Shown here: positions 7,668 through 16,925 of the stretch, one piece after another
Position numbering within the stretch: position 1 is the first letter of the stretch
How the letters are laid out: each line of letters starts with the position of its first letter
From: an uncultured Alphaproteobacteria bacterium
Lineage (GTDB): Bacteria; Pseudomonadota; Alphaproteobacteria; CBDUZE01
Reading direction: 5' to 3'
Length of the DNA stretch: 64,000 bases
Assembly: GCA_965371625.1 (NCBI GenBank)
Contig: CBDUZE010000001.1
Span: 71,320 to 135,319 of the forward strand
Program-made: the position numbers and the translations under genes
The notes under the pieces: generated by a model
The model's database searches: none
What the model saw: the letters and a program-made list of their open reading frames with translations, nothing else
Told to the model about the DNA's origin: nothing

Positions 7668-8554
7668 CCCGGCGCTACGCCTACTTCCCCGGCTGCTCGG
7701 CCAAGGGCAGCTGCCGCGAGCTCGACATCAGCACCCTGGCCGTGGCCCGTGCCTTCGACATCGAGCTTACCGAGCTCGAGGACGCCGGCTGCACCGGCGC
7801 GCGGGAGTTCCGCGCCATCAGCGAGCAGCTCCAGCTCACCGCCAATGGCCGCATCCTGGCCCTGGCCGAGGCGCAAGGCTCGGACCTGGTGGCGGTCTGC
7901 GACACCTGTCTGTTGAACCTGATGGAGACCAACCAGCGGCTGAAGGCCGACCCGGCCGCCCTCGAGACGGTCAACCGTGCCCTCGCTGAGGGGGACCTCG
8001 AATACCGCGGCGGGATCGCGGTCAAGCACTTCCTCTGGGTGCTCTCGGAGGACGTGGGCGAGGCGCGGCTCCGCGAACGGGTGACGCGGCCCTTGAACGG
8101 GCTTCGGGTGGCGCCGTTCTACGGCTGCCACATCCGCCGCCCGGCGAGCGCCTACGGCGCCGAGGTCCCGGACCGGGCGACCTCGCTCGACCGCCTCTGC
8201 GAGATCGTCGGCGCCGAGCCGGTGGCCTACGACGGCGCCGACAAGTGCTGCGGCTTCCACGTCGTGATGGCGGAGGAGAAGATCGCGCTTCGGATGGGCG
8301 GCGCCCGCCTCGCCGGCGCCCGCGACCAGGGCGCCGACTGCCTGGTGACGCCCTGCCCGCTCTGCCACACCGTGCTCGACGCCTATCAGCCCAACATCGA
8401 GCGCCAGCTCGAGCAGCGCTTCGAGATCCCCATCCTCCACGTCTCGCAGCTGATGGGGCTCGCTCTGGGGCTTTCACCCGAGGCGCTCGCCCTCCCCCGC
8501 CACATGGTCGACGCCGGCGGGGTGCTCGCGGCGGTCGGGGGCGAGAACGCCTGA
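7664..8554 (+). CDS. CCG-domain subunit (HdrB/SdhE/TfrB-like, two cysteine-rich CCG motifs)
   Basis: Start ATG overlaps the upstream stop (ATGA). Motifs YFPGCSAKGSC, FYGCHIRRP and CPLCHTVLDAY are typical of heterodisulfide-reductase subunit B-like domains, as found in type E Sdh and in MfrE/TfrB. Confidence 0.7.
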   Translation: MTRRYAYFPGCSAKGSCRELDISTLAVARAFDIELTELEDAGCTGAREFRAISEQLQLTANGRILALAEAQGSDLVAVCDTCLLNLMETNQRLKADPAALETVNRALAEGDLEYRGGIAVKHFLWVLSEDVGEARLRERVTRPLNGLRVAPFYGCHIRRPASAYGAEVPDRATSLDRLCEIVGAEPVAYDGADKCCGFHVVMAEEKIALRMGGARLAGARDQGADCLVTPCPLCHTVLDAYQPNIERQLEQRFEIPILHVSQLMGLALGLSPEALALPRHMVDAGGVLAAVGGENA

Positions 8555-8591
8555 ACGGGCCCCCAAAGCCCGGCTCCGGCGAACCTGATGT

Positions 8592-9443
8592 TCAAGCGAC
8601 CAGAGGCATCTCGATCGGCTTGACCTGATCGATCGTGCTTTTGTTGATGATCTCGAGCTCCTCCCGCTCGGTCTCGATTGGGAAGAAACTCAGATCGCTG
8701 TTCAGGACATCGACCACACGTTGATGTTCCGTAACGAAGACCTTCCCTTTCCTTGTCTCGCCGTCAATCGTGATGATCTCGACCTCGAGCCGGTCGAGGC
8801 TGGTAGACACCTTCATTGGGGCGCCATTGTCGATGGGAATGACCCGTGAAAGAGTCGCCTTGGTGATCACCTGGAACTCCCCGTCGTCGCTCTCGAACGG
8901 CAGAAAGCTCTTTTCATTGGCAATCACGTCGGACACCCGTTCGCCCTTGGCACAATAGATTTTCCCCTGGAGGACGCTGCCATCGAGCTTTACAAGCCGC
9001 ACCGTGGCAGGGTCCTTGTGTTGCCAATTGCTGTTTTCCATATCCGCCTTCCTTTCCTGCGTCACTTGGACCGCCAGTGCCTCACCAATCTCCGCAATAA
9101 AATTCTGCTTGGAAACGGCGATCGCGGCAGTCATGCCTTTGGCTACGCTTAACGTCCTGGCCATTTCCGCGTACTTCGGCGAGTAGCCGGTAACGATGAT
9201 CAACCTGGCTGTGCATCCTTGGTCGCCCAGCCAGTTGATCAATTCGATGCCGTCGACGTCGGGCATCACCACTTCGAGCATGATTACGTCCGGATTGAAG
9301 GTCTCGAATGACTCTTTGAAATCCCGCGCCCGGGTCGTGACATTGACCTCGAAGCCAGCCTCATCGGCGGCCTGGCGCACGTACTCGCCGAAGTCTTTAT
9401 CGTTGTCGATAATCAGGAAGCGATTCTTGCTCACAACCAACAT
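8592..9443 (-). CDS. Atypical single-domain response regulator (Glu at the phospho-acceptor position) fused to two tandem copies of an uncharacterised ~65-aa domain
   Basis: N-terminal REC fold (LIIDNDKD...DVIMLEVVMPDVDG...LIIVTGY...SKQ). The residue aligned to the phosphorylatable Asp is Glu. The C-terminus holds two repeats of pattern DGxxxxGKxxxxxxxRVxDVxNxxxxFxPxExxxxExxxIxKxxIxxVxPI. Lower GC than surroundings. Start chosen at MLVVSKN. Confidence 0.6.
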   Translation of the reverse strand: MLVVSKNRFLIIDNDKDFGEYVRQAADEAGFEVNVTTRARDFKESFETFNPDVIMLEVVMPDVDGIELINWLGDQGCTARLIIVTGYSPKYAEMARTLSVAKGMTAAIAVSKQNFIAEIGEALAVQVTQERKADMENSNWQHKDPATVRLVKLDGSVLQGKIYCAKGERVSDVIANEKSFLPFESDDGEFQVITKATLSRVIPIDNGAPMKVSTSLDRLEVEIITIDGETRKGKVFVTEHQRVVDVLNSDLSFFPIETEREELEIINKSTIDQVKPIEMPLVA

Positions 9444-9455
9444 CCAACACAAATT

Positions 9456-9487
9456 GTGGCGACACCATTGGACGTGGCGACACCATT
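9456..9487. promoter_or_regulatory. 14-bp direct repeat GTGGCGACACCATT x2 (18-bp period) immediately upstream of the response-regulator start
   Basis: Read directly in sequence at 9456-9469 and 9474-9487. Lies in the divergent RR/luxI intergenic region. Confidence 0.5.
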
Positions 9488-9616
9488 AGGGTACGGGGCG
9501 AAACCGTCGGTCCGCACACTATCGACGGGCAGAGCCCGACTACACCTGTCATCTCCTCAAGAATATGGCCTGTCAACTCGTCCAAAAGGCGGATGTATCT
9601 CCTCGTGGGAGTCCTT

Positions 9617-9654
9617 CTAACCTGCCAATACTGACCTAACCTGCCAATACTGAC
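9617..9654. promoter_or_regulatory. Perfect 19-bp tandem duplication CTAACCTGCCAATACTGAC x2, 20-57 bp upstream of luxI start; candidate LuxR-type operator (lux-box-like ACCTG start)
   Basis: Read directly in sequence. Position overlaps the expected -35/-10 region of the luxI-family gene. Confidence 0.5.
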
Positions 9655-9673
9655 GGGAGAAAGGTGTGGGATC

Positions 9674-10279
9674 ATGTCGAACGTGACGCTAGAGTTCGGA
9701 AAAATCCACGAGCTTCCCAAGCGTATGGTGGATCAGATGTTTCGATTGCGGGCGCTGGTTTTTGACCAGCAGCTTGGATGGGTGAAATCCAACGGGGAGA
9801 CGGAGATCGACTATTACGACGCGCTCGGTCCCGTCTACGTCGTCTGCCACGCCCCAGCCGATGAAGTAATCGCCGCCGTTCGGCTGCTCCCCAGCAGCGG
9901 CCCCAACATGCTTCGCGACGTGTTCCCCGAGCTCCTGTGCGGCAAAGACCCGCCCTGGGCGGATGACGTATGGGAGTCGAGCCGCTTCTTCGCCGTTGGC
10001 CGACCGCCCGAGATTTCTCCCGTCCAGACCGCGTTCAAACTGGTTGAAGGCATGTTCACCTGCGCTCTGGCACGAGGGTGGCGTGGAATCGTCTCGGTCA
10101 GCGACGTACGCATGGAGCGGCTGATGCGCCGGACTGGCGTGCGGATCAACCGTTTCGGACCACCGCAGCGGATTGGCAACATGTTGGCGATGGCGGGATG
10201 GGCCGACGTGACGCGTGAAAACCTCAACCTCTCCGCCAACGCCGCCGGTTCGACCGGAGACCTTCGCCTGGCCTCCTAG
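9674..10279 (+). CDS. luxI: Acyl-homoserine-lactone synthase (LuxI family autoinducer synthase)
   Basis: FRLRALVFDQQLGW, YYD and SRF motifs conserved in LuxI-family synthases. 201 aa. Confidence 0.85.
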   Translation: MSNVTLEFGKIHELPKRMVDQMFRLRALVFDQQLGWVKSNGETEIDYYDALGPVYVVCHAPADEVIAAVRLLPSSGPNMLRDVFPELLCGKDPPWADDVWESSRFFAVGRPPEISPVQTAFKLVEGMFTCALARGWRGIVSVSDVRMERLMRRTGVRINRFGPPQRIGNMLAMAGWADVTRENLNLSANAAGSTGDLRLAS

Positions 10280-10303
10280 GGCGTCGACCGAGCCGCCGAG
10301 GAG

Positions 10304-11749
10304 TTGGCGGGCGCTTCACCAGGTATGAGAGGACCTCGAGAAATGGACGCGATAGTCAGACCCAATTGCCCGGGACAAGTAGTCCCGCGGGATGTGCCCT
10401 TGCTACGTGGCGCGCCAGTGATCGGCGCGCTGCTACCGATCCGAAAAGATCCTCTCAATTTCTTCGTCAACATCCGACGAGCCTTGGGCGATGTCGTCAA
10501 GGTGAATGTCGGAAACGACCAAGTCCTGTTCGTCGCCGACCCCGAGATCATCGAGCACGTTCTGGAGACCAACCACCGCAACTATGTCAAGAGCCGCCAT
10601 CTCAAGCGAATGGCGACGATCTTCGACTCCAACGTCATCGTTGCGGACGGCGAGGACTGGCGTCGGAGGCGCAAGTTCCTTCGCCCCGCGCTCGCTCGCG
10701 AGCATATCGATGAGCTCGGTTGGCTGGTGGTTGGCGAAGTCACCGCGATGGTCGAGCGCTGGCGCCTCGCCTCACGCCAGGGCCAACCGATCAACGCTTT
10801 GGACGAGTTCATGGATCTCACCCTTGGCGTCATCGTGAAGTCCTTGTTGGGTGTGGGCATCGGACCTCGAGGGCCGATGATCGCCCGCGCCCTTGCCGTC
10901 ATGCTGGCGGCCAGTGAGCGACGCCTTTGGACACCGATCAATGTGCCAATCTCGGTGCCCATTCCCAGCAATCGCGCACTCAAGCGAGCAATCGCGCAAT
11001 TCGACCAGTTGATCTATTCGATCATCGGCGAACGCAGGCAATCGGCTGAAGGTCGCAACGATATCCTAACGGTTCTGCTGTCGGCGGAAGGCGACCCACA
11101 CGATCCCATATCGGACGTCGATATCAGAGACGAAATCGTGGGCATGATCGTTGCCGGTCACGAAACGACGGCGACGACACTAACCTGGACCGTCGAGGCC
11201 CTGTCTCGCCATCCCAATATCGATCGCAGGCTCCGTGCCGAGGTTCAGGAAGTGCTGCAGGGCAGAACGCCGACGATCAGCGACGCGGCCGATCTGAAGT
11301 ACTGCAGGATGGTTCTCCAGGAGACGATGCGCCTGCGCCCGCCGGTGTGGACCGTATCGAGGGAGGCGTTGGCGGACGATCAGGTAAATGGGGTTCGGAT
11401 TCCGGCTGGAACCGTCGTCATGATGTCGCCGTTCGTGGTCCACCGGCATGAAGGCTACTGGCCCAATCCGGAGGGCTTCGACCCGGAACGCTTCGTCGAT
11501 GGCGAGCCGGACGGTGCGGCAAAGTACGCCTATTTCCCGTTCGCGGGCGGGCCGCGCAGGTGCGTGGGGCAACATTTCTCGATGACCGAAATGCTGATCG
11601 CCCTGCCCATGTTGATCCAGAATTTCCAGCTCAGTCTCATACCCGGACACCCGGTCGAGATGCAACCGATGGTGACCCTACGTCCCCGACACGGACTATG
11701 GATGCTTGTGTCGGACGCCGCCGCCGCGACGCAACAACGCGCCGCATGA
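10304..11749 (+). CDS. Cytochrome P450 monooxygenase
   Basis: FPFAGGPRRCVGQHFSMTEM haem-thiolate loop, ETMRLRPP (ExxR) and AGHETT I-helix motif. True start may be Met at ~10343. Confidence 0.85.
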   Translation: MAGASPGMRGPREMDAIVRPNCPGQVVPRDVPLLRGAPVIGALLPIRKDPLNFFVNIRRALGDVVKVNVGNDQVLFVADPEIIEHVLETNHRNYVKSRHLKRMATIFDSNVIVADGEDWRRRRKFLRPALAREHIDELGWLVVGEVTAMVERWRLASRQGQPINALDEFMDLTLGVIVKSLLGVGIGPRGPMIARALAVMLAASERRLWTPINVPISVPIPSNRALKRAIAQFDQLIYSIIGERRQSAEGRNDILTVLLSAEGDPHDPISDVDIRDEIVGMIVAGHETTATTLTWTVEALSRHPNIDRRLRAEVQEVLQGRTPTISDAADLKYCRMVLQETMRLRPPVWTVSREALADDQVNGVRIPAGTVVMMSPFVVHRHEGYWPNPEGFDPERFVDGEPDGAAKYAYFPFAGGPRRCVGQHFSMTEMLIALPMLIQNFQLSLIPGHPVEMQPMVTLRPRHGLWMLVSDAAAATQQRAA

Positions 11750-11842
11750 CGGGCTATCTTGGCGACACTTTAGCTGATATCGCCTTTCGTGGACGGATCG
11801 CTGTGGTATAATTCAACCGATCGTAGGATCGGGGGACTCGAA

Positions 11843-12601
11843 ATGGTGCGCAAATCCCTGATCGGCTTCGTCGGACGTCTGGAAAGCGCGCGGACATTGG
11901 ACGAGTGCGGTGAGGTAATCGTCGACATTGCCGACGCGTGCGATTCCTCGAACTACCTCACCTACTTCGGCACCCTGTCTCATGACGCGCGAACCTATCC
12001 CGGCACCATGTTTCAGGAACAGCCGCTGTCCATTTACAACTTCCCGCAGGCCTGGGCCGAAATCTACCTCGGCCAAATGCTGTTCCGGATCGACCCCGTG
12101 ATGCAGCGCTGCCTGCACTCGGTGGTCCCAGTGTTCTGGCACGACGAGCTGCGCGGCGCCGATGAGGAGGGGAGACGGTTCTTCGCCATGGCCCGCGAGC
12201 ATGGGCTGGCGGCCGGGTTGACCGTCCCGATCCACGCCCGCCACGGCAGCTTCGGGGCGTTTGCCCTGTCCTTCGACAACGACGCCGCCGAGACGCTGCG
12301 GCATATCGAGGCCATCGCGCCCGATCTCCATGTGCTGAGCTTTCACGTCTACGCCAACCTGCGGCGGATCGCCAGCGTGGAAGAGCCGGCACCGGCGCTG
12401 CCGCGGCTGACGCCCAGGGAAAAGCAGGTCCTGTTGTGGACCGCGTCGGGCAAGACGATCTGGGAGATCTCGGTCATCCTCTCGATCTCCCAGAGAACCG
12501 CCAAGCAGCACCTGTCGAGCGTGATGGCCAAGCTCGGCGTGGAGAACAAGTTTCATGCCGTGGCGGAAGCCGTGGCCTGCGGTCTGACAAAGGCCTATTG
12601 A
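11843..12601 (+). CDS. luxR: LuxR-family AHL-responsive transcriptional regulator
   Basis: Autoinducer-binding residues (W, Y, DP, W) in the N-terminal domain. C-terminal LTPREKQVLLWTASGKTIWEISVILSISQRTAKQHL HTH. ORF begins at 11789; start chosen at MVRKSL. Confidence 0.8.
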   Translation: MVRKSLIGFVGRLESARTLDECGEVIVDIADACDSSNYLTYFGTLSHDARTYPGTMFQEQPLSIYNFPQAWAEIYLGQMLFRIDPVMQRCLHSVVPVFWHDELRGADEEGRRFFAMAREHGLAAGLTVPIHARHGSFGAFALSFDNDAAETLRHIEAIAPDLHVLSFHVYANLRRIASVEEPAPALPRLTPREKQVLLWTASGKTIWEISVILSISQRTAKQHLSSVMAKLGVENKFHAVAEAVACGLTKAY

Positions 12602-12652
12602 GCCGATTGCCGACGCCCGGAATGCCGGGGGGTTGACGCCGGCCGCCCCCGC

Positions 12653-13900
12653 TCACCCCCGCGTCAGATAATCGTAGGCCGAGAGCACGTGGGTGCGCAC
12701 GGTGTGGAGGAACTCCTCGACCTCGACGTGCTCGTCGAATGAGCCCATGCCGGCCGGCACCGGGCCGTAGACGTAAGCCGGCACGTTCTCGTAGCGCCAC
12801 AGCCGGGTGTCGGTGGCGCCCAGGCTGACCACCGGCTTGGGCTCGAAGCCCCTTAAGGTGCGCACGTTGTCGCGCAGGATCTCGGCCATCTCGCCGAAGG
12901 GGGCGCACCAGCTCGGCGCGTTGCGGTTGATCTCTTCCATGCTCACCTCGGGGTAGCCCTCGAGGATGGTCTCGATCTCGCCCAGCACGCGCTCGGCCGT
13001 GACGCCCACCGGCAGGCGCACGTCGACCTCCATCTCGGCCTGGCCCGGCGTCATGTTGACCTTTACGCCGCTCCGCAGCAGGCCGACGTTGACCGACACG
13101 CGCGAGACCACGTCGGCGGCGCCCGCGCCCTGGGCCTCTTCGATCTCGTCGCGCGCACCGCTGAGAGCGGTGACCACGTTGTCGGGCATCTCCATCTCGA
13201 TCTCGGTGAGCGATTCGAGCTCGCCAATGAGCCGTGCCGCGAGCTTCGAGGCGCTCACCGTGAGGTGGGGATAGGCGCCGTGGGCGCCCCGGGTCGCGAT
13301 GGTGAAGCGCAGCCAAATCAGCCCCTTCTCGCCGAAGCGCAAGGTGCGCGGCCCCGAGGGCTCGCCGTTGAGGCAGCAGTCGCCGTGGACCTCGGGGTGG
13401 TTGGCGATGAGGTGGCGGGCACCATAGGGCCCGAAGGTCTCCTCGTCGGAGACCGCGGTCAGGGTCAGGCGGCCCTTGAGCTGGTCGCGGATGCGGCTCA
13501 GGTAGAGGTAGGTGAAGATCGAGGCGGTGGTGCCGCACTTCATGTCGGCGGCGCCGCGGCCCCAGATGCGGCCGTCGGCGACGGCGCCGCTCCACGGCCC
13601 GTGGCTCCAGCGCTCCTCGTCGGGGACGGGGAAGACGTCGATGTGGCCGTTCAGCACCAGGTGGCGGCCCGGCGCCCCGCCCTCGAAGCTGGCGACGATG
13701 TTGGGCATGCGCTCGTTGGGGGCGATGACGCGATAGTCGAGGCCTTCGCCGTCGAGCAGGCCGCGGACGTGGTCCGCCGCCGCCACCGTGTCGCCGGGCG
13801 GGTTGGGCGACTTGGCCTGGATGAAGCGGCTCAGGAACTCGATCAGGCGCTCGCGATCGCCCTCGATCCAGTCGAACAGCGTCTTCTTGTTGTCAATCAT
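12653..13900 (-). CDS. M20-family metallopeptidase/deacylase (ArgE/DapE-like)
   Basis: MIDNKKTLFDWIE...HIDVFPV...GAADMKCG...SDEE typical M20 metal-ligand motifs. Long ORF 12653..14515 trimmed to this Met. Confidence 0.75.
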   Translation of the reverse strand: MIDNKKTLFDWIEGDRERLIEFLSRFIQAKSPNPPGDTVAAADHVRGLLDGEGLDYRVIAPNERMPNIVASFEGGAPGRHLVLNGHIDVFPVPDEERWSHGPWSGAVADGRIWGRGAADMKCGTTASIFTYLYLSRIRDQLKGRLTLTAVSDEETFGPYGARHLIANHPEVHGDCCLNGEPSGPRTLRFGEKGLIWLRFTIATRGAHGAYPHLTVSASKLAARLIGELESLTEIEMEMPDNVVTALSGARDEIEEAQGAGAADVVSRVSVNVGLLRSGVKVNMTPGQAEMEVDVRLPVGVTAERVLGEIETILEGYPEVSMEEINRNAPSWCAPFGEMAEILRDNVRTLRGFEPKPVVSLGATDTRLWRYENVPAYVYGPVPAGMGSFDEHVEVEEFLHTVRTHVLSAYDYLTRG

Positions 13901-13929
13901 TCCGTTCTCCCCTTGCGATCGCCGGGCGT

Positions 13930-14754
13930 CTAGGGCTCCTTCTCGGGCTCGAAGCGGGCGTCGCGCCAGGCCAGTGCCGCCTGCAGGCCCTGCTCCTTGC
14001 GGATGCGGTTGAACTCGGCGCGCTCGGCGCCTTCCGAGCTCTCCAGCACGATGTCGGTCTCGAGGGCGGCGAGCAGCGCCTGGCGCATGTTCATCATCTC
14101 GTAGCTGCGGTTGATGGCGCGCTTGGTGAGGCGCACCGAAAGGGGCGCGGCGGCGGCGATGTCCCGGGCCAGCGCCATCGCCTTGTCGAGCTCGGCGCCG
14201 GCCGGCACCACGTGGTTGACGAGCCCCATGGCGAGGGCTCTTTGGGCGTCGATCTTGTCGTCGCCGGTGAGCAGGAGCTCCTTGGCGAGCTTGGCTCCGG
14301 TCATCCACGGCAGTATCAGGGCGACGATGCCGGAGCCGAAGCGCACCTCGGGCGAGCCGAAGCGCGCGCCCTCGGCGGCCACGGTGATGTCGCAGGCCAG
14401 CGCGAGCTCGAAGGCGCCGGCCAGGCAGTGGCCGTGGACCGCGGCGATGGTCGGCTTGGGGCAGTCCCAGAACTGCATGATGAAGTCGAAGTCGTGCTCC
14501 AGCACCGGGCGCCACTCGGCGGCGCCGGTGGTGGCGCGGGCCGCCGACTCCTTGAGGTCGAAGCCGGCCGAGAACGAGCGCCCGGCGCCGTGGACGACCA
14601 CCGCCGAGACCGCCTCGTCGCCGGCGAAGGCGGCGAGCGCGGCACCGGTCTGGTCGATGAGCGCGCTGTTGAAGGCGTTCAACACCTCGGGCCGGTTGAA
14701 GGTGATGACGCCGACCGCGCCCTCGGTGCGGGTTAGGATCGGATCCTGGGTCAT
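13930..14754 (-). CDS. Enoyl-CoA hydratase/isomerase (crotonase) family protein
   Basis: Crotonase-fold motifs (ITFNRPEVLNAF, FSAGFDL, GHCLAGAFELALACD). Confidence 0.8.
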   Translation of the reverse strand: MTQDPILTRTEGAVGVITFNRPEVLNAFNSALIDQTGAALAAFAGDEAVSAVVVHGAGRSFSAGFDLKESAARATTGAAEWRPVLEHDFDFIMQFWDCPKPTIAAVHGHCLAGAFELALACDITVAAEGARFGSPEVRFGSGIVALILPWMTGAKLAKELLLTGDDKIDAQRALAMGLVNHVVPAGAELDKAMALARDIAAAAPLSVRLTKRAINRSYEMMNMRQALLAALETDIVLESSEGAERAEFNRIRKEQGLQAALAWRDARFEPEKEP

Positions 14755-16925
14755 GGGCGTTCGCTTTCCTTCGTGTCCTTGGGGTCGATTTTCCTGGGCA
14801 CCACCAGGGCGTCGACGGCGAGGGCGCCGTCGGGGCCCACGATCACCGGGTTGACGTCGAGCTCGGTAATGAGCGGCCCGAGCTCCACCGCGAGCACGCT
14901 CAGCCGCTCGATCGCCCGCGCCAGGGCGCCCATGTCGGCGGCCGGGCGCCCGCGATAGCCGTCGAGCAGGGCGTGACCCTTGAGCCGCTCGAGCGCGCCG
15001 AGCGCCTGCTCGGCGGCGATCGGCGGCACCAGGGTGACCTGGTCCTCGAACAGCTCGACCAGCACCCCGCCGAGCGCCACCGTGACCATGGCCCCGAAGG
15101 GCTCGTCGTTGACCACGCCGAGCAGCACCTCGACGCCGGGCGGCGCCTGGGCCTGGACCAGGGCCCTTGCGCCGTGGGCGGCGGCGACGCGGCGGTAGGC
15201 CGCGGCCAGGGCCCCGGCGTCGGCGAGGCCGAGGACGACGGCGCCCACGTCCGACTTGTGCAGGACCTCGGGCGCCGCGGTCTTGAGCACCACCGGATAG
15301 CCCAGCCTGGCCGCGGCGGCGAGCGCCTCGGCCTCGCCCTCGACCACGGCCCCGGCCACCACCGGGCCGCCGAAATCGGCGAACAGGCGCAAGCTCTCGG
15401 CGCCGTCGAGCGGCACGCCGCCGGCCGCCGCGAGGCGCCGCCGCCAGCGCTCGATCACCTCGGCCTCGGCGGGCACGGGCCTCGCCGCCGCCGTGCCGCC
15501 CCTGTGGCGGCCCCTGTGGCGGCGCCCGTGATAGGCGACGAAATGGGCGATCGCCGCCAGCGCGGTCGCCGTGCCCATGAGCACCGGGATGCCGAGCTCG
15601 CGGAGCCGCGCCGCCTCGTCGCGGCAGATCGAGCTGTGGAGGTTGCCGAAGGCGACGATCGGCTTCGGCGTCGAGTTATGCGCGGCTTCGGCGGCCGCGG
15701 TCTGGGCATAGAGATAGGGCCGGCCGGTGACCATGTTGACGGCCAGGGCGACGATCCCGACGTCCGGATCCTGGGCCATGATGCTGAGGCAGTCCTCGAA
15801 GATGTAAGCGCCGTCGCCCCACGAATCGACCGGATTGTCGGGCTCGAAGCCGGGGTCGAGCACCGCCTCGAGCTTGGTCCTGGTGGCCGGCGCGAGCGCG
15901 GCGAACCGGAGCCCGGCATGCGACGCGAGGTCGACGATGAGCTGGCGCTCGGCGCCCGAATCGGTGACCACGCCGAGGCCGTCGCCGGGCGGCGCGCGAC
16001 CCCGCGAGAAGAGCTCCAGGGTATCGGCCAGCTCGTCGAGCGTGTCGACGGCAGAGACGTTGTGGCGTTCGAAGACGGCGCGGTAGGCGGCGTCGGAGCC
16101 GGCGATGGCGCCACTGTGAGCAAGGGCGAAGCGGGCGCCCGCCTCCGAGCGGCCGAGCTTGAGCGCCACCACCGGGATGTCGCGCTTTTCCGCCAGCTCC
16201 AGCGCGGCGAGGAAGGCCTCGGGATCGCGCACCGTCTCGAGGACGCAGCCGATCACCCGGGTCTCCGGGCGCGCGATCAGGAAAGCCAAGTAATCGGCCA
16301 TCGTGGTGGCGATCTCCTCGCCCGCCGAGACGGCGTAATTGAAGCGCAGCTGGCGCTGGCTGCCGACCAGCCCCGACCAGCTCGAGCCGCTGTGGGAGAT
16401 CACCCCGATGCCGCCGTCGAGCGCCGGGATCGGCAGCGCGTGGCCGCACACCATGAGGCGGTCGACGAAGTTCATGAAGCCCATCGAGTTGCTGCCGCAC
16501 ACCGCCATTCCGGCCTCGCGGGCGATCGCCCCCAGGCGCTCGGTCAGGGGTGCCCGGCCGGGCGACGGCGGGGCCTCGTAGCAGCGGCCGAAGAGCACCG
16601 CGGCCCGCGCCCCGGCGGCGGCGGCCTCGGCGAAGAGGCCTTCGACGCGGTCGTCCGCGACCGCCATGATGACGCAATCGACGGGCTCCGGGATGGCCCC
16701 GACGGTAGGGTAGCAGGGGTAGCCGGCGATCTCGTCGTAGCGCGGATTGACGGCGTGGACGGCGCCACCGAAGTCCCACCTCGCCAGCGAGTCGAGCAGG
16801 CTGCGGCCGAACGAGGCAGGCCGAGCGCTGGCGCCGACCACCGCGATCGATTCGGGCCGCAGCAGCCGCGCCACGGCATCTTCCCCGACGCTGTTCACGA
16901 GACGAATTTGACCCTCTTCCCCCAA
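14751..16925 (-). CDS. ADP-forming acyl-CoA synthetase (acetate--CoA ligase family, fused alpha/beta; CoA-binding plus ATP-grasp domains)
   Basis: N-terminal CoA-binding/succinyl-CoA-synthetase-alpha-like region (IAVVGAS...SHSGS) and C-terminal ATP-grasp (PVVLKTAAPEVLHKSDVGAV). 4-bp overlap with the downstream hydratase. Exact start uncertain. Confidence 0.7.
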   Translation of the reverse strand: MGEEGQIRLVNSVGEDAVARLLRPESIAVVGASARPASFGRSLLDSLARWDFGGAVHAVNPRYDEIAGYPCYPTVGAIPEPVDCVIMAVADDRVEGLFAEAAAAGARAAVLFGRCYEAPPSPGRAPLTERLGAIAREAGMAVCGSNSMGFMNFVDRLMVCGHALPIPALDGGIGVISHSGSSWSGLVGSQRQLRFNYAVSAGEEIATTMADYLAFLIARPETRVIGCVLETVRDPEAFLAALELAEKRDIPVVALKLGRSEAGARFALAHSGAIAGSDAAYRAVFERHNVSAVDTLDELADTLELFSRGRAPPGDGLGVVTDSGAERQLIVDLASHAGLRFAALAPATRTKLEAVLDPGFEPDNPVDSWGDGAYIFEDCLSIMAQDPDVGIVALAVNMVTGRPYLYAQTAAAEAAHNSTPKPIVAFGNLHSSICRDEAARLRELGIPVLMGTATALAAIAHFVAYHGRRHRGRHRGGTAAARPVPAEAEVIERWRRRLAAAGGVPLDGAESLRLFADFGGPVVAGAVVEGEAEALAAAARLGYPVVLKTAAPEVLHKSDVGAVVLGLADAGALAAAYRRVAAAHGARALVQAQAPPGVEVLLGVVNDEPFGAMVTVALGGVLVELFEDQVTLVPPIAAEQALGALERLKGHALLDGYRGRPAADMGALARAIERLSVLAVELGPLITELDVNPVIVGPDGALAVDALVVPRKIDPKDTKESERP

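Follow-up and report, generated by a model that had tools for sequence, protein, structure and literature searches.

A cytochrome P450 conserved beside luxI and luxR in Alphaproteobacteria: a candidate three-gene quorum-sensing circuit

We analyzed a stretch of 64,000 nucleotides (hereafter the window, within which all coordinates are given) from contig CBDUZE010000001.1 of an uncultured Alphaproteobacteria bacterium (assembly GCA_965371625.1), which encodes a quorum-sensing cassette composed of luxI, a cytochrome P450 and luxR. The comparative data supported the P450 as a dedicated and conserved partner of luxI and luxR, judging by gene neighborhoods and phylogeny. In a neighbor-joining (NJ) tree of 164 unique P450s drawn from genomes and metagenomes, the 21 P450s linked to luxI made up exactly one clade, with no unlinked P450 inside it and no linked P450 outside. 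On balance, we lean towards a three-gene N-acyl-homoserine lactone (AHL) circuit in which the P450 would oxidize the acyl tail, either on the signal itself or on its precursor. The trio was found again in about 20 other bacterial lineages. An earlier reading of this DNA, made from its letters alone (the sequence-only reading), had been aware of no characterized cassette of this kind; likewise, no description of a luxI-linked P450 circuit was found in the literature searched, which excluded subscription-only papers.

The listing of open reading frames (ORFs) and the Pfam and NCBIfam scans of the window confirmed that the three genes are intact and share the forward strand, as the sequence-only reading had stated. 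The first gene, luxI (9674-10279, +), encodes an AHL synthase of 201 aa (PF00765, E=3.5e-30). It is followed by the P450 gene (10343-11749, +), whose product of 468 aa consists of the heme domain only and is matched over its full length by PF00067 (E=2e-87, 294 bits). The third gene, luxR (11843-12601, +), encodes an AHL-binding transcription factor of 252 aa (PF03472, E=9e-28; PF00196, E=5e-17). The most likely start of the P450 is the ATG at 10343, rather than the TTG at 10304 that opens the longest ORF. A Shine-Dalgarno sequence (AGAGGA) lies 9 nt before this ATG, and the protein has 468 aa in all homologues and in the gene call of the near-identical contig L168. This contig was reached by looking up the LuxI sequence; an exact look-up of the P450 returned no record. 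This start leaves a gap of 63 bp after luxI, instead of the 24 bp reported before, which correspond to the TTG. The other gap, reported as about 90 bp, was borne out: the most likely luxR start is the ATG at 11843, which gives the protein of 252 aa and a gap of 93 bp after the P450. This ATG is preceded by GGGGGA; each of the three genes has a Shine-Dalgarno sequence, and no intrinsic terminator was predicted between the genes of the cassette.

Scanning genome contigs with the single P450 protein gave no match, and homologues were retrieved by an alignment-based scan of species-representative genomes, followed by tblastn. In a separate comparison, the identities of P450 homologues to the window protein descended in steps: 91% and 88%, then 51-54%, and then at most 44%. 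Among homologues of at least 51% identity, luxI lay directly upstream in every readable context. These contexts comprised several unrelated neighborhoods, namely luxR-luxI-P450-RadC by IS66 and defense genes, type I-E CRISPR-Cas, and synteny of the window type. In the genome scan, Azospirillum formosense CC-NFb-7 and A. brasilense ATCC 49958 each carried a luxI immediately before the P450 gene. Nine further luxI-linked loci, with identities of 34-39%, all belonged to Alphaproteobacteria (Ferruginivarius sediminum WD2A32, along with Kiloniellales, Rhodospirillales and unclassified metagenome-assembled genomes), and the metagenome scan yielded four more. Meanwhile, a relative with 41% identity occurred without luxI. 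Linkage of every related alphaproteobacterial P450 was rejected on the P450 of Skermanella pTT6-1, the closest alphaproteobacterial one from a plasmid (35.5%), which also lacks luxI.

Members of the linked clade display 34-52% identity to the window protein and lie in unrelated flanking contexts. Among the 143 unlinked loci, 120 had at least 1 kb of sequence upstream of the P450, so that the absence of luxI could be tested, and luxI was absent from all of these loci outside the clade (120/120). In an 88-sequence NJ tree, the subclade of window and Azospirillum P450s was recovered in 100/100 bootstrap replicates and the whole clade in 65/100. The sequence-only reading had proposed placing the P450 phylogenetically and surveying P450s next to luxI, with a pathway gene that merely abuts luxI as the outcome that would count against it. 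Carried out here, this survey showed the linked P450s to be a single clade spread over many contexts and not an abutting pathway gene.

The reciprocal test started from the synthases. Numerous relatives of the window LuxI share 36-46% identity with it. In an NJ tree, the LuxIs of the cassettes formed two groups lying next to each other and separate from about 100 other LuxIs, whose identity to the window protein is as high or higher. For LuxIs of previously unknown context, membership in these groups predicted P450 linkage in both of the new contigs that could be judged (2/2): the LuxI P0262 is encoded in luxR-luxI-small ORF-P450 and the LuxI P0231 in luxI-small ORF-P450. The gene of a third LuxI inside the groups, P0248, lies at a contig end and stands outside the count. 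The locus of the control P0177, which at 46% identity resembles the window LuxI more than any other protein beyond the two groups, displayed luxR-luxI followed by an unrelated gene of 289 aa, and no P450. This gene (L174:5694-6563) begins 43 bp downstream of the P0177 luxI, has no Pfam domain and is found in the same place in L175; from its position, it may be another luxI-linked accessory gene.

The distance matrices of LuxI, P450 and LuxR were correlated, with r = 0.89-0.96 overall and r = 0.59-0.77 when each subclade was represented by one sequence (Mantel p ≤ 0.012). Collectively, these comparisons show that luxI, the P450 and luxR travel as a unit.

The P450 itself displayed all of its expected motifs: the Cys-ligand loop FPFAGGPRRCVG (FxxGxRxCxG), the acid-alcohol pair of the I-helix (AGHETT), the ExxR motif in the form ETMR, and DPERF. 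Its AlphaFold2 model is a confident P450 fold, with a predicted local distance difference test (pLDDT) score of 92. The nearest relative of known structure is a fatty-acid-binding P450, CYP184A1 of Streptomyces avermitilis, solved with oleic acid bound, which was both the best sequence match in the PDB (E=2.5e-74, 33% identity) and the best Foldseek match to the model, with a template modeling (TM) score of 0.88-0.92. This enzyme is a fatty-acid epoxidase with a long and narrow pocket, according to PMC11214959, which cites Kim et al. 2022. The next Foldseek matches were CYP97, CYP3A and P450 BM3 (TM 0.85). Under the P450 nomenclature rule, a protein joins a CYP family if it is 40% or more identical in amino acids to one of its named members; with 33% to CYP184A1 and 21-22% to BM3 (CYP102A1), the window P450 would constitute a separate family by this rule. 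Three residues are conserved in the linked clade and rare outside it: E192 and W196, where the F-helix ends, and T337, in substrate recognition site 5 (SRS5). All three lie in regions that shape substrate specificity.

The window LuxI matched PF00765 with 105.3 bits against a cut-off of 24, over residues 16-184 of 201. Its closest PDB matches were LasI (3.5e-27) and TofI (2.5e-23), well ahead of the acyl-coenzyme A (CoA)-type synthases BjaI (2.9e-11) and RpaI (2.7e-10), and the conserved catalytic and SAM-binding blocks FRLRALVF..GW, EIDYYD, VRLLP and VWESSRF all align with LasI. The LuxIs of L033 and L007 also placed LasI and TofI before BjaI and RpaI, with a narrower margin in L007, and this ranking thus covers all three cassette types, such similarity being a proxy only for the use of acyl-acyl carrier protein (ACP) versus acyl-CoA substrates. 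An acyl-CoA-type LuxI, an idea raised by the ligase found in distant cassettes, was unsupported by similarity to solved structures.

The window LuxR combines an Autoind_bind domain (PF03472, 97.1 bits) with a GerE domain (PF00196, 61.7 bits), and its closest PDB match was LasR (E=6.7e-32). It retains the equivalents of LasR W60, Y64, D73, P74, W88 and G113, as well as the E, L and G of the helix-turn-helix, and among 15 cassette LuxRs, W60, Y64, D73, W88 and G113 (LasR numbering) are invariant. The sequence-only reading had credited this protein with all ligand-pocket residues. This held for the six hallmark positions but not for Y56 and S129, the hydrogen-bonding residues of LasR, which are F and A in the window protein; in addition, R61 and T75 are replaced by A and V. 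These replacements suggest a different recognition of the acyl chain or of its 3-position. Since the cassette LuxRs keep the contacts to the lactone and the amide, their ligand would still be an N-acyl-homoserine lactone, with any modification located on the tail.

Three types of cassette could be distinguished. The window type consists of a divergent gene encoding a response-regulator receiver and DUF6812 repeats, followed by luxI-P450-luxR. The Azospirillum type is arranged as luxR-luxI-P450-RadC, and the Kiloniellales/Rhodospirillales type as luxR-luxI-small ORF-P450, often followed by a transporter of the MFS family and/or an AMP-binding enzyme resembling fatty-acyl-CoA ligases. The genes shared by all of these types are limited to luxI, the P450 and luxR. 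The cassette described by the sequence-only reading is a recurrent one in regard to this trio, but the order luxI-CYP-luxR is derived, and most relatives display luxR-luxI-CYP.

The small ORF in the luxI-P450 gap of the distant cassettes encodes 70-85 aa with the motif A[IL]xxCLxYLxxEA..GL...AHLIGVAAEA. It was detected in L011, L015, L023, L033, L034, L036, L052, L066, L068, L092, L115 and L171, is weak in L170, has a second copy at L066:9206-9658 and does not occur in cassettes of the window or Azospirillum type. We rejected it as a ferredoxin or an ACP, as it has no Cys cluster, no Asp-Ser-Leu (DSL) motif and no Pfam match. It may be a fourth component of the circuit. Downstream of the P450, the MFS transporter and/or the ligase-like enzyme occur in L023, L033, L034, L036, L052 and L068, whereas cassettes of the window or Azospirillum type have neither; their presence hints at the uptake and activation of an acid precursor.

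In the Azospirillum-type loci L002, L004, L006, L007 and L008, the stop codon of the P450 is directly adjoined by a RadC-like JAB gene. Loci of this type also carry a conserved, Cys-rich and apparently secreted ORF of about 100 aa (CPCPYSTMRNGRRCGG) upstream of luxR. Their neighborhoods contain IS66 fragments, HNH genes, ubiquitin-like (Bub-type) defense genes or type I-E CRISPR-Cas, a gene content that suggests a mobile or defense island. Two single loci displayed additional genes: a PhyH-family dioxygenase between luxR and luxI (L011:5906-6793, -), and a stand-alone receiver-domain protein right after the P450 (L015:9357-9752, +), which echoes the response regulator of the window.

For the substrate, the sequence of reactions and the control of the circuit, we infer the following. 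LuxI would make an AHL, probably one with a long chain. The P450, co-transcribed with luxI and served by a ferredoxin and a reductase of the host, would hydroxylate or epoxidize the acyl chain, acting on either the finished AHL or an acyl precursor ahead of LuxI. The linked LuxR would then read the oxidized AHL through its normal pocket for the lactone and amide head group. In this scheme, luxI would be transcribed together with the P450 gene as a single unit, and luxR may be served by a separate promoter. The cassette would be a mobile unit that Rhodospirillales-like Alphaproteobacteria have both inherited and exchanged as a block. In favor of this reading are the exclusive linkage to luxI, the short gaps, an intact P450 that resembles a fatty-acid epoxidase and the AHL-oxidizing BM3, the clade-specific residues in regions of substrate recognition, the head-group contacts kept by the LuxRs and the precedent in Mesorhizobium. 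More tentatively, we propose that the luxI-linked P450 clade could mark a previously unrecognized and fairly widespread class of AHL circuits of Rhodospirillales, Kiloniellales and Azospirillum type. Their signal would be a P450-oxidized (epoxy- or distal-hydroxy-) long-chain AHL, and they would have co-evolving LuxI and LuxR lineages of their own, a fourth conserved small protein in many cases and, in some, a transporter along with an acyl-CoA ligase that would feed the pathway.

Several observations weigh against oxidation of the signal by the P450. Linkage shows functional coupling and not its direction, and the whole P450 clade is only moderately supported as monophyletic by the bootstrap. 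Shared history alone correlates distance matrices, so that the correlations described above indicate co-inheritance and not necessarily co-adaptation. No gene for a ferredoxin or a reductase was found in the low-GC island that encloses the cassette, nor is one fused to the P450, and host partners would therefore be needed. Upstream of the window luxI, no good palindrome representing a canonical lux box was found. Finally, the transporter and ligase of the distant cassettes also fit a small uptake and oxidation operon regulated by quorum sensing.

This last point makes it credible, if on the whole unlikely, that the P450 leaves the signal alone and is instead the first target of quorum sensing, an enzyme that, at high cell density, would oxidize a different lipid or a substrate from the environment, such as a fatty acid or a compound of plant or host origin. 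Genes immediately downstream of luxI are often quorum-sensing outputs. The structure nearest to the P450 is a free-fatty-acid epoxidase, and an MFS transporter and a ligase placed after the P450 resemble a module for uptake, activation and oxidation. However, these two genes are not part of the core shared by all cassette types. Furthermore, it would be unusual for a lone output gene to remain tied to one LuxI lineage in 21/21 cases, down to about 35% identity and across changes of gene order and context.

We regard as rather improbable a built-in attenuation, in which the P450 would oxidize the AHL of its own cell to a product poorly recognized by LuxR, thereby setting the threshold or resetting the circuit in the manner of a self-encoded quencher like CYP102A1. 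P450 BM3 does oxidize AHLs (Chowdhary 2007, as cited in PMC5479921) and shares its fold with the window P450, and this mechanism, too, would predict that the P450 stays linked to luxI and luxR. Nevertheless, expressing a synthase and the destroyer of its product from one promoter would be wasteful, and no such case was found in the literature searched for luxI-linked P450s. The window P450 also has no fused reductase and little sequence identity to BM3, and the LuxI and LuxR lineages that travel with it are better explained by a distinct signal chemistry than by simple degradation. The weakest alternative, an unrelated P450 pathway gene that came to lie between luxI and luxR by chance, is compatible with the window taken alone and with a survey that tabulates unrelated P450s only as incidental members of antiSMASH homoserine-lactone regions (PMC8197338), but it is effectively refuted by the comparative data, given the linkage of 21/21 inside the clade against 0/120 outside, the correct prediction of linkage from LuxI phylogeny, the differing flanks of the relatives and the single foreign GC signature of the block.

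This signature delimits a low-GC island of about 4.1 kb (8555-12652) that encloses the whole cassette. The GC content of 8592-12601 is 0.600, compared to 0.714 and 0.716 in the 5-kb flanks, and the GC content at third codon positions (GC3) is 0.74-0.85 in the island genes and 0.93-0.96 in their neighbors. A lower GC content of the block and its adjacent regulator, and a horizontal origin, had both been suggested by the sequence-only reading, and the two contrasts agree with it; from its composition, the block looks horizontally acquired. The insertion point is identical in the close relatives L001, L005 and L168. The island borders showed no direct repeats, integrase or tRNA, plasmid records matched the window in nothing but short conserved genes, and the Rfam scan of the 64-kb window returned no family at gathering score, tRNA and rRNA included.

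On its left, the island is bordered by a CCG-domain gene (+ strand, ending at 8554), part of a host-like flank with a gene set of fumarate-reductase-like flavoprotein, iron-sulfur (FeS) and CCG proteins. On its right lies an M20 peptidase gene (12653-13900, -), the first of a run of genes in DNA of host GC (12653-16925, -) that also encodes an enoyl-CoA hydratase (crotonase) and an ADP-forming acyl-CoA synthetase. The proximity of this crotonase (13930-14754, -), the only one nearby, to the quorum-sensing genes recalls the accessory gene of Mesorhizobium but is probably coincidental, since it is encoded on the opposite strand, outside the island and in DNA of host GC. Inside the island and divergent from luxI is the gene for a response-regulator receiver with two DUF6812 repeats (8592-9443, -; PF00072, E=6.9e-13; PF20660, E=4.3e-10). 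Its GC content of 0.55 is the lowest within the island, it was called as 283 aa on L168, and it was found only in the window-type subclade. It is the boundaries of the island, and these only, that would make this gene a member of the circuit.

Candidate regulatory elements were detected in the intergenic regions of the island. Just upstream of the start codon of the response regulator, GTGGCGACACCATT occurs twice and overlaps the imperfect palindrome AATTGTGGCGACACCATT (9452-9488); this repeat is identical in L168 and partly kept in L001, and is a candidate regulator-binding site. An exact 19-bp tandem duplication, CTAACCTGCCAATACTGAC, lies just upstream of the luxI Shine-Dalgarno sequence (9617-9654, +), and L001 has one diverged copy of this element. 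It agrees at 14/16 positions with the palindromic box ACCTGTCAATTCTGACAGCT upstream of the L052 luxI. The element is lux-box-like, yet it is a poor palindrome and too near the ATG for a classical activator site at -42.5. We do not claim the repeated ACCTGCCAATACTGAC as a lux-box binding site, as it is non-palindromic and badly placed. Clear lux-box palindromes were found upstream of luxI in relatives, namely GTCGTCAGATCCGACGAC in Azospirillum, CCCGCCAGTTCTGGCGGG in L033 and L036, and the L052 box mentioned above. In the P450-luxR gap, an extended -10 element, TGGTATAAT (11805-11813, +), was read directly from the sequence. The consensus promoter scan did not list it, for want of a matching -35 hexamer. 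Its presence is the reason to consider that luxR may have its own promoter.

The diversity of AHLs is usually attributed to the substrate choice of LuxI alone. The crotonase of Mesorhizobium, discussed below, is a case in which a linked accessory enzyme creates a new signal. If our interpretation is correct, a dedicated P450 would add oxidative tailoring to the sources of AHL diversity, and P450-oxidized long-chain AHLs would be a kind of signal so far unreported as native and genetically encoded. It would also imply AHL structures not seen before, which may escape standard screens, and could offer orthogonal pairs of signal and receptor for synthetic biology. The cassette is present in cultured hosts, namely the Azospirillum strains and Ferruginivarius sediminum, and the circuit could explain silent or uncharacterized quorum sensing in culturable, plant-associated Azospirillum strains. 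A simple genomic rule would serve to find such systems: luxI followed by a member of the linked P450 clade.

Among known P450s, BM3 belongs to the same structural class as the window protein and hydroxylates long acyl chains, including those of AHLs (Chowdhary 2007, as cited in PMC5479921). However, BM3 is fused to a reductase, comes from a Gram-positive host that makes no AHL, is unlinked to luxI and luxR, and its activity counts as quorum quenching. CYP184A1 is the best match in both sequence and structure, and it binds oleic acid and epoxidizes fatty acids (PMC11214959). It differs from the window P450 in its actinomycete origin and lies below the 40% family threshold, and neither the PDB entry title (7wzl, 7wzm) nor PMC11214959 links it to quorum sensing. 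In regard to the synthase and the receptor, LasI and LasR of Pseudomonas aeruginosa share their domain architecture and hallmark residues with the window proteins, while the lasI/lasR system has no P450.

A signal-tailoring P450 has a parallel in the butenolide and gamma-butyrolactone autoregulators of actinomycetes, where a P450 encoded beside the signal-synthesis genes tailors the signal, e.g., Cyp17 for avenolide. These autoregulators are another class of signal, made by another synthase family and perceived by TetR-type receptors, and are not AHLs.

The closest precedent is the three-gene AHL circuit R1-I1-mlr5639 of Mesorhizobium japonicum (Suo et al. 2023, PMC10470506). A crotonase gene located 8 bp downstream of I1 is needed there to produce 2E,4E-C12:2-homoserine lactone (HSL), as established by deletion and complementation (PMC10470506). 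Because crotonase three-gene circuits have been published, the concept presented here is not wholly new. Both systems place an accessory enzyme gene beside luxI, in the same orientation, after a short gap and with conservation across Alphaproteobacteria; in ours, this accessory gene accompanies luxI in 21/21 clade members and also in L170 and L171. The Mesorhizobium accessory enzyme is needed for an unusual AHL that is read selectively by the linked LuxR, a role that we propose for the P450 as well. The two systems differ in chemistry, as Mesorhizobium pairs a crotonase-superfamily enzyme acting on acyl-CoA with a LuxI of the acyl-CoA clade, while the window pairs a P450 with a LuxI nearer to the acyl-ACP-type LasI and TofI. 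Based on this comparison, the luxI-P450-luxR cassette appears to have the same circuit architecture as that of Mesorhizobium, built with a different class of enzyme and an apparently different LuxI subgroup.

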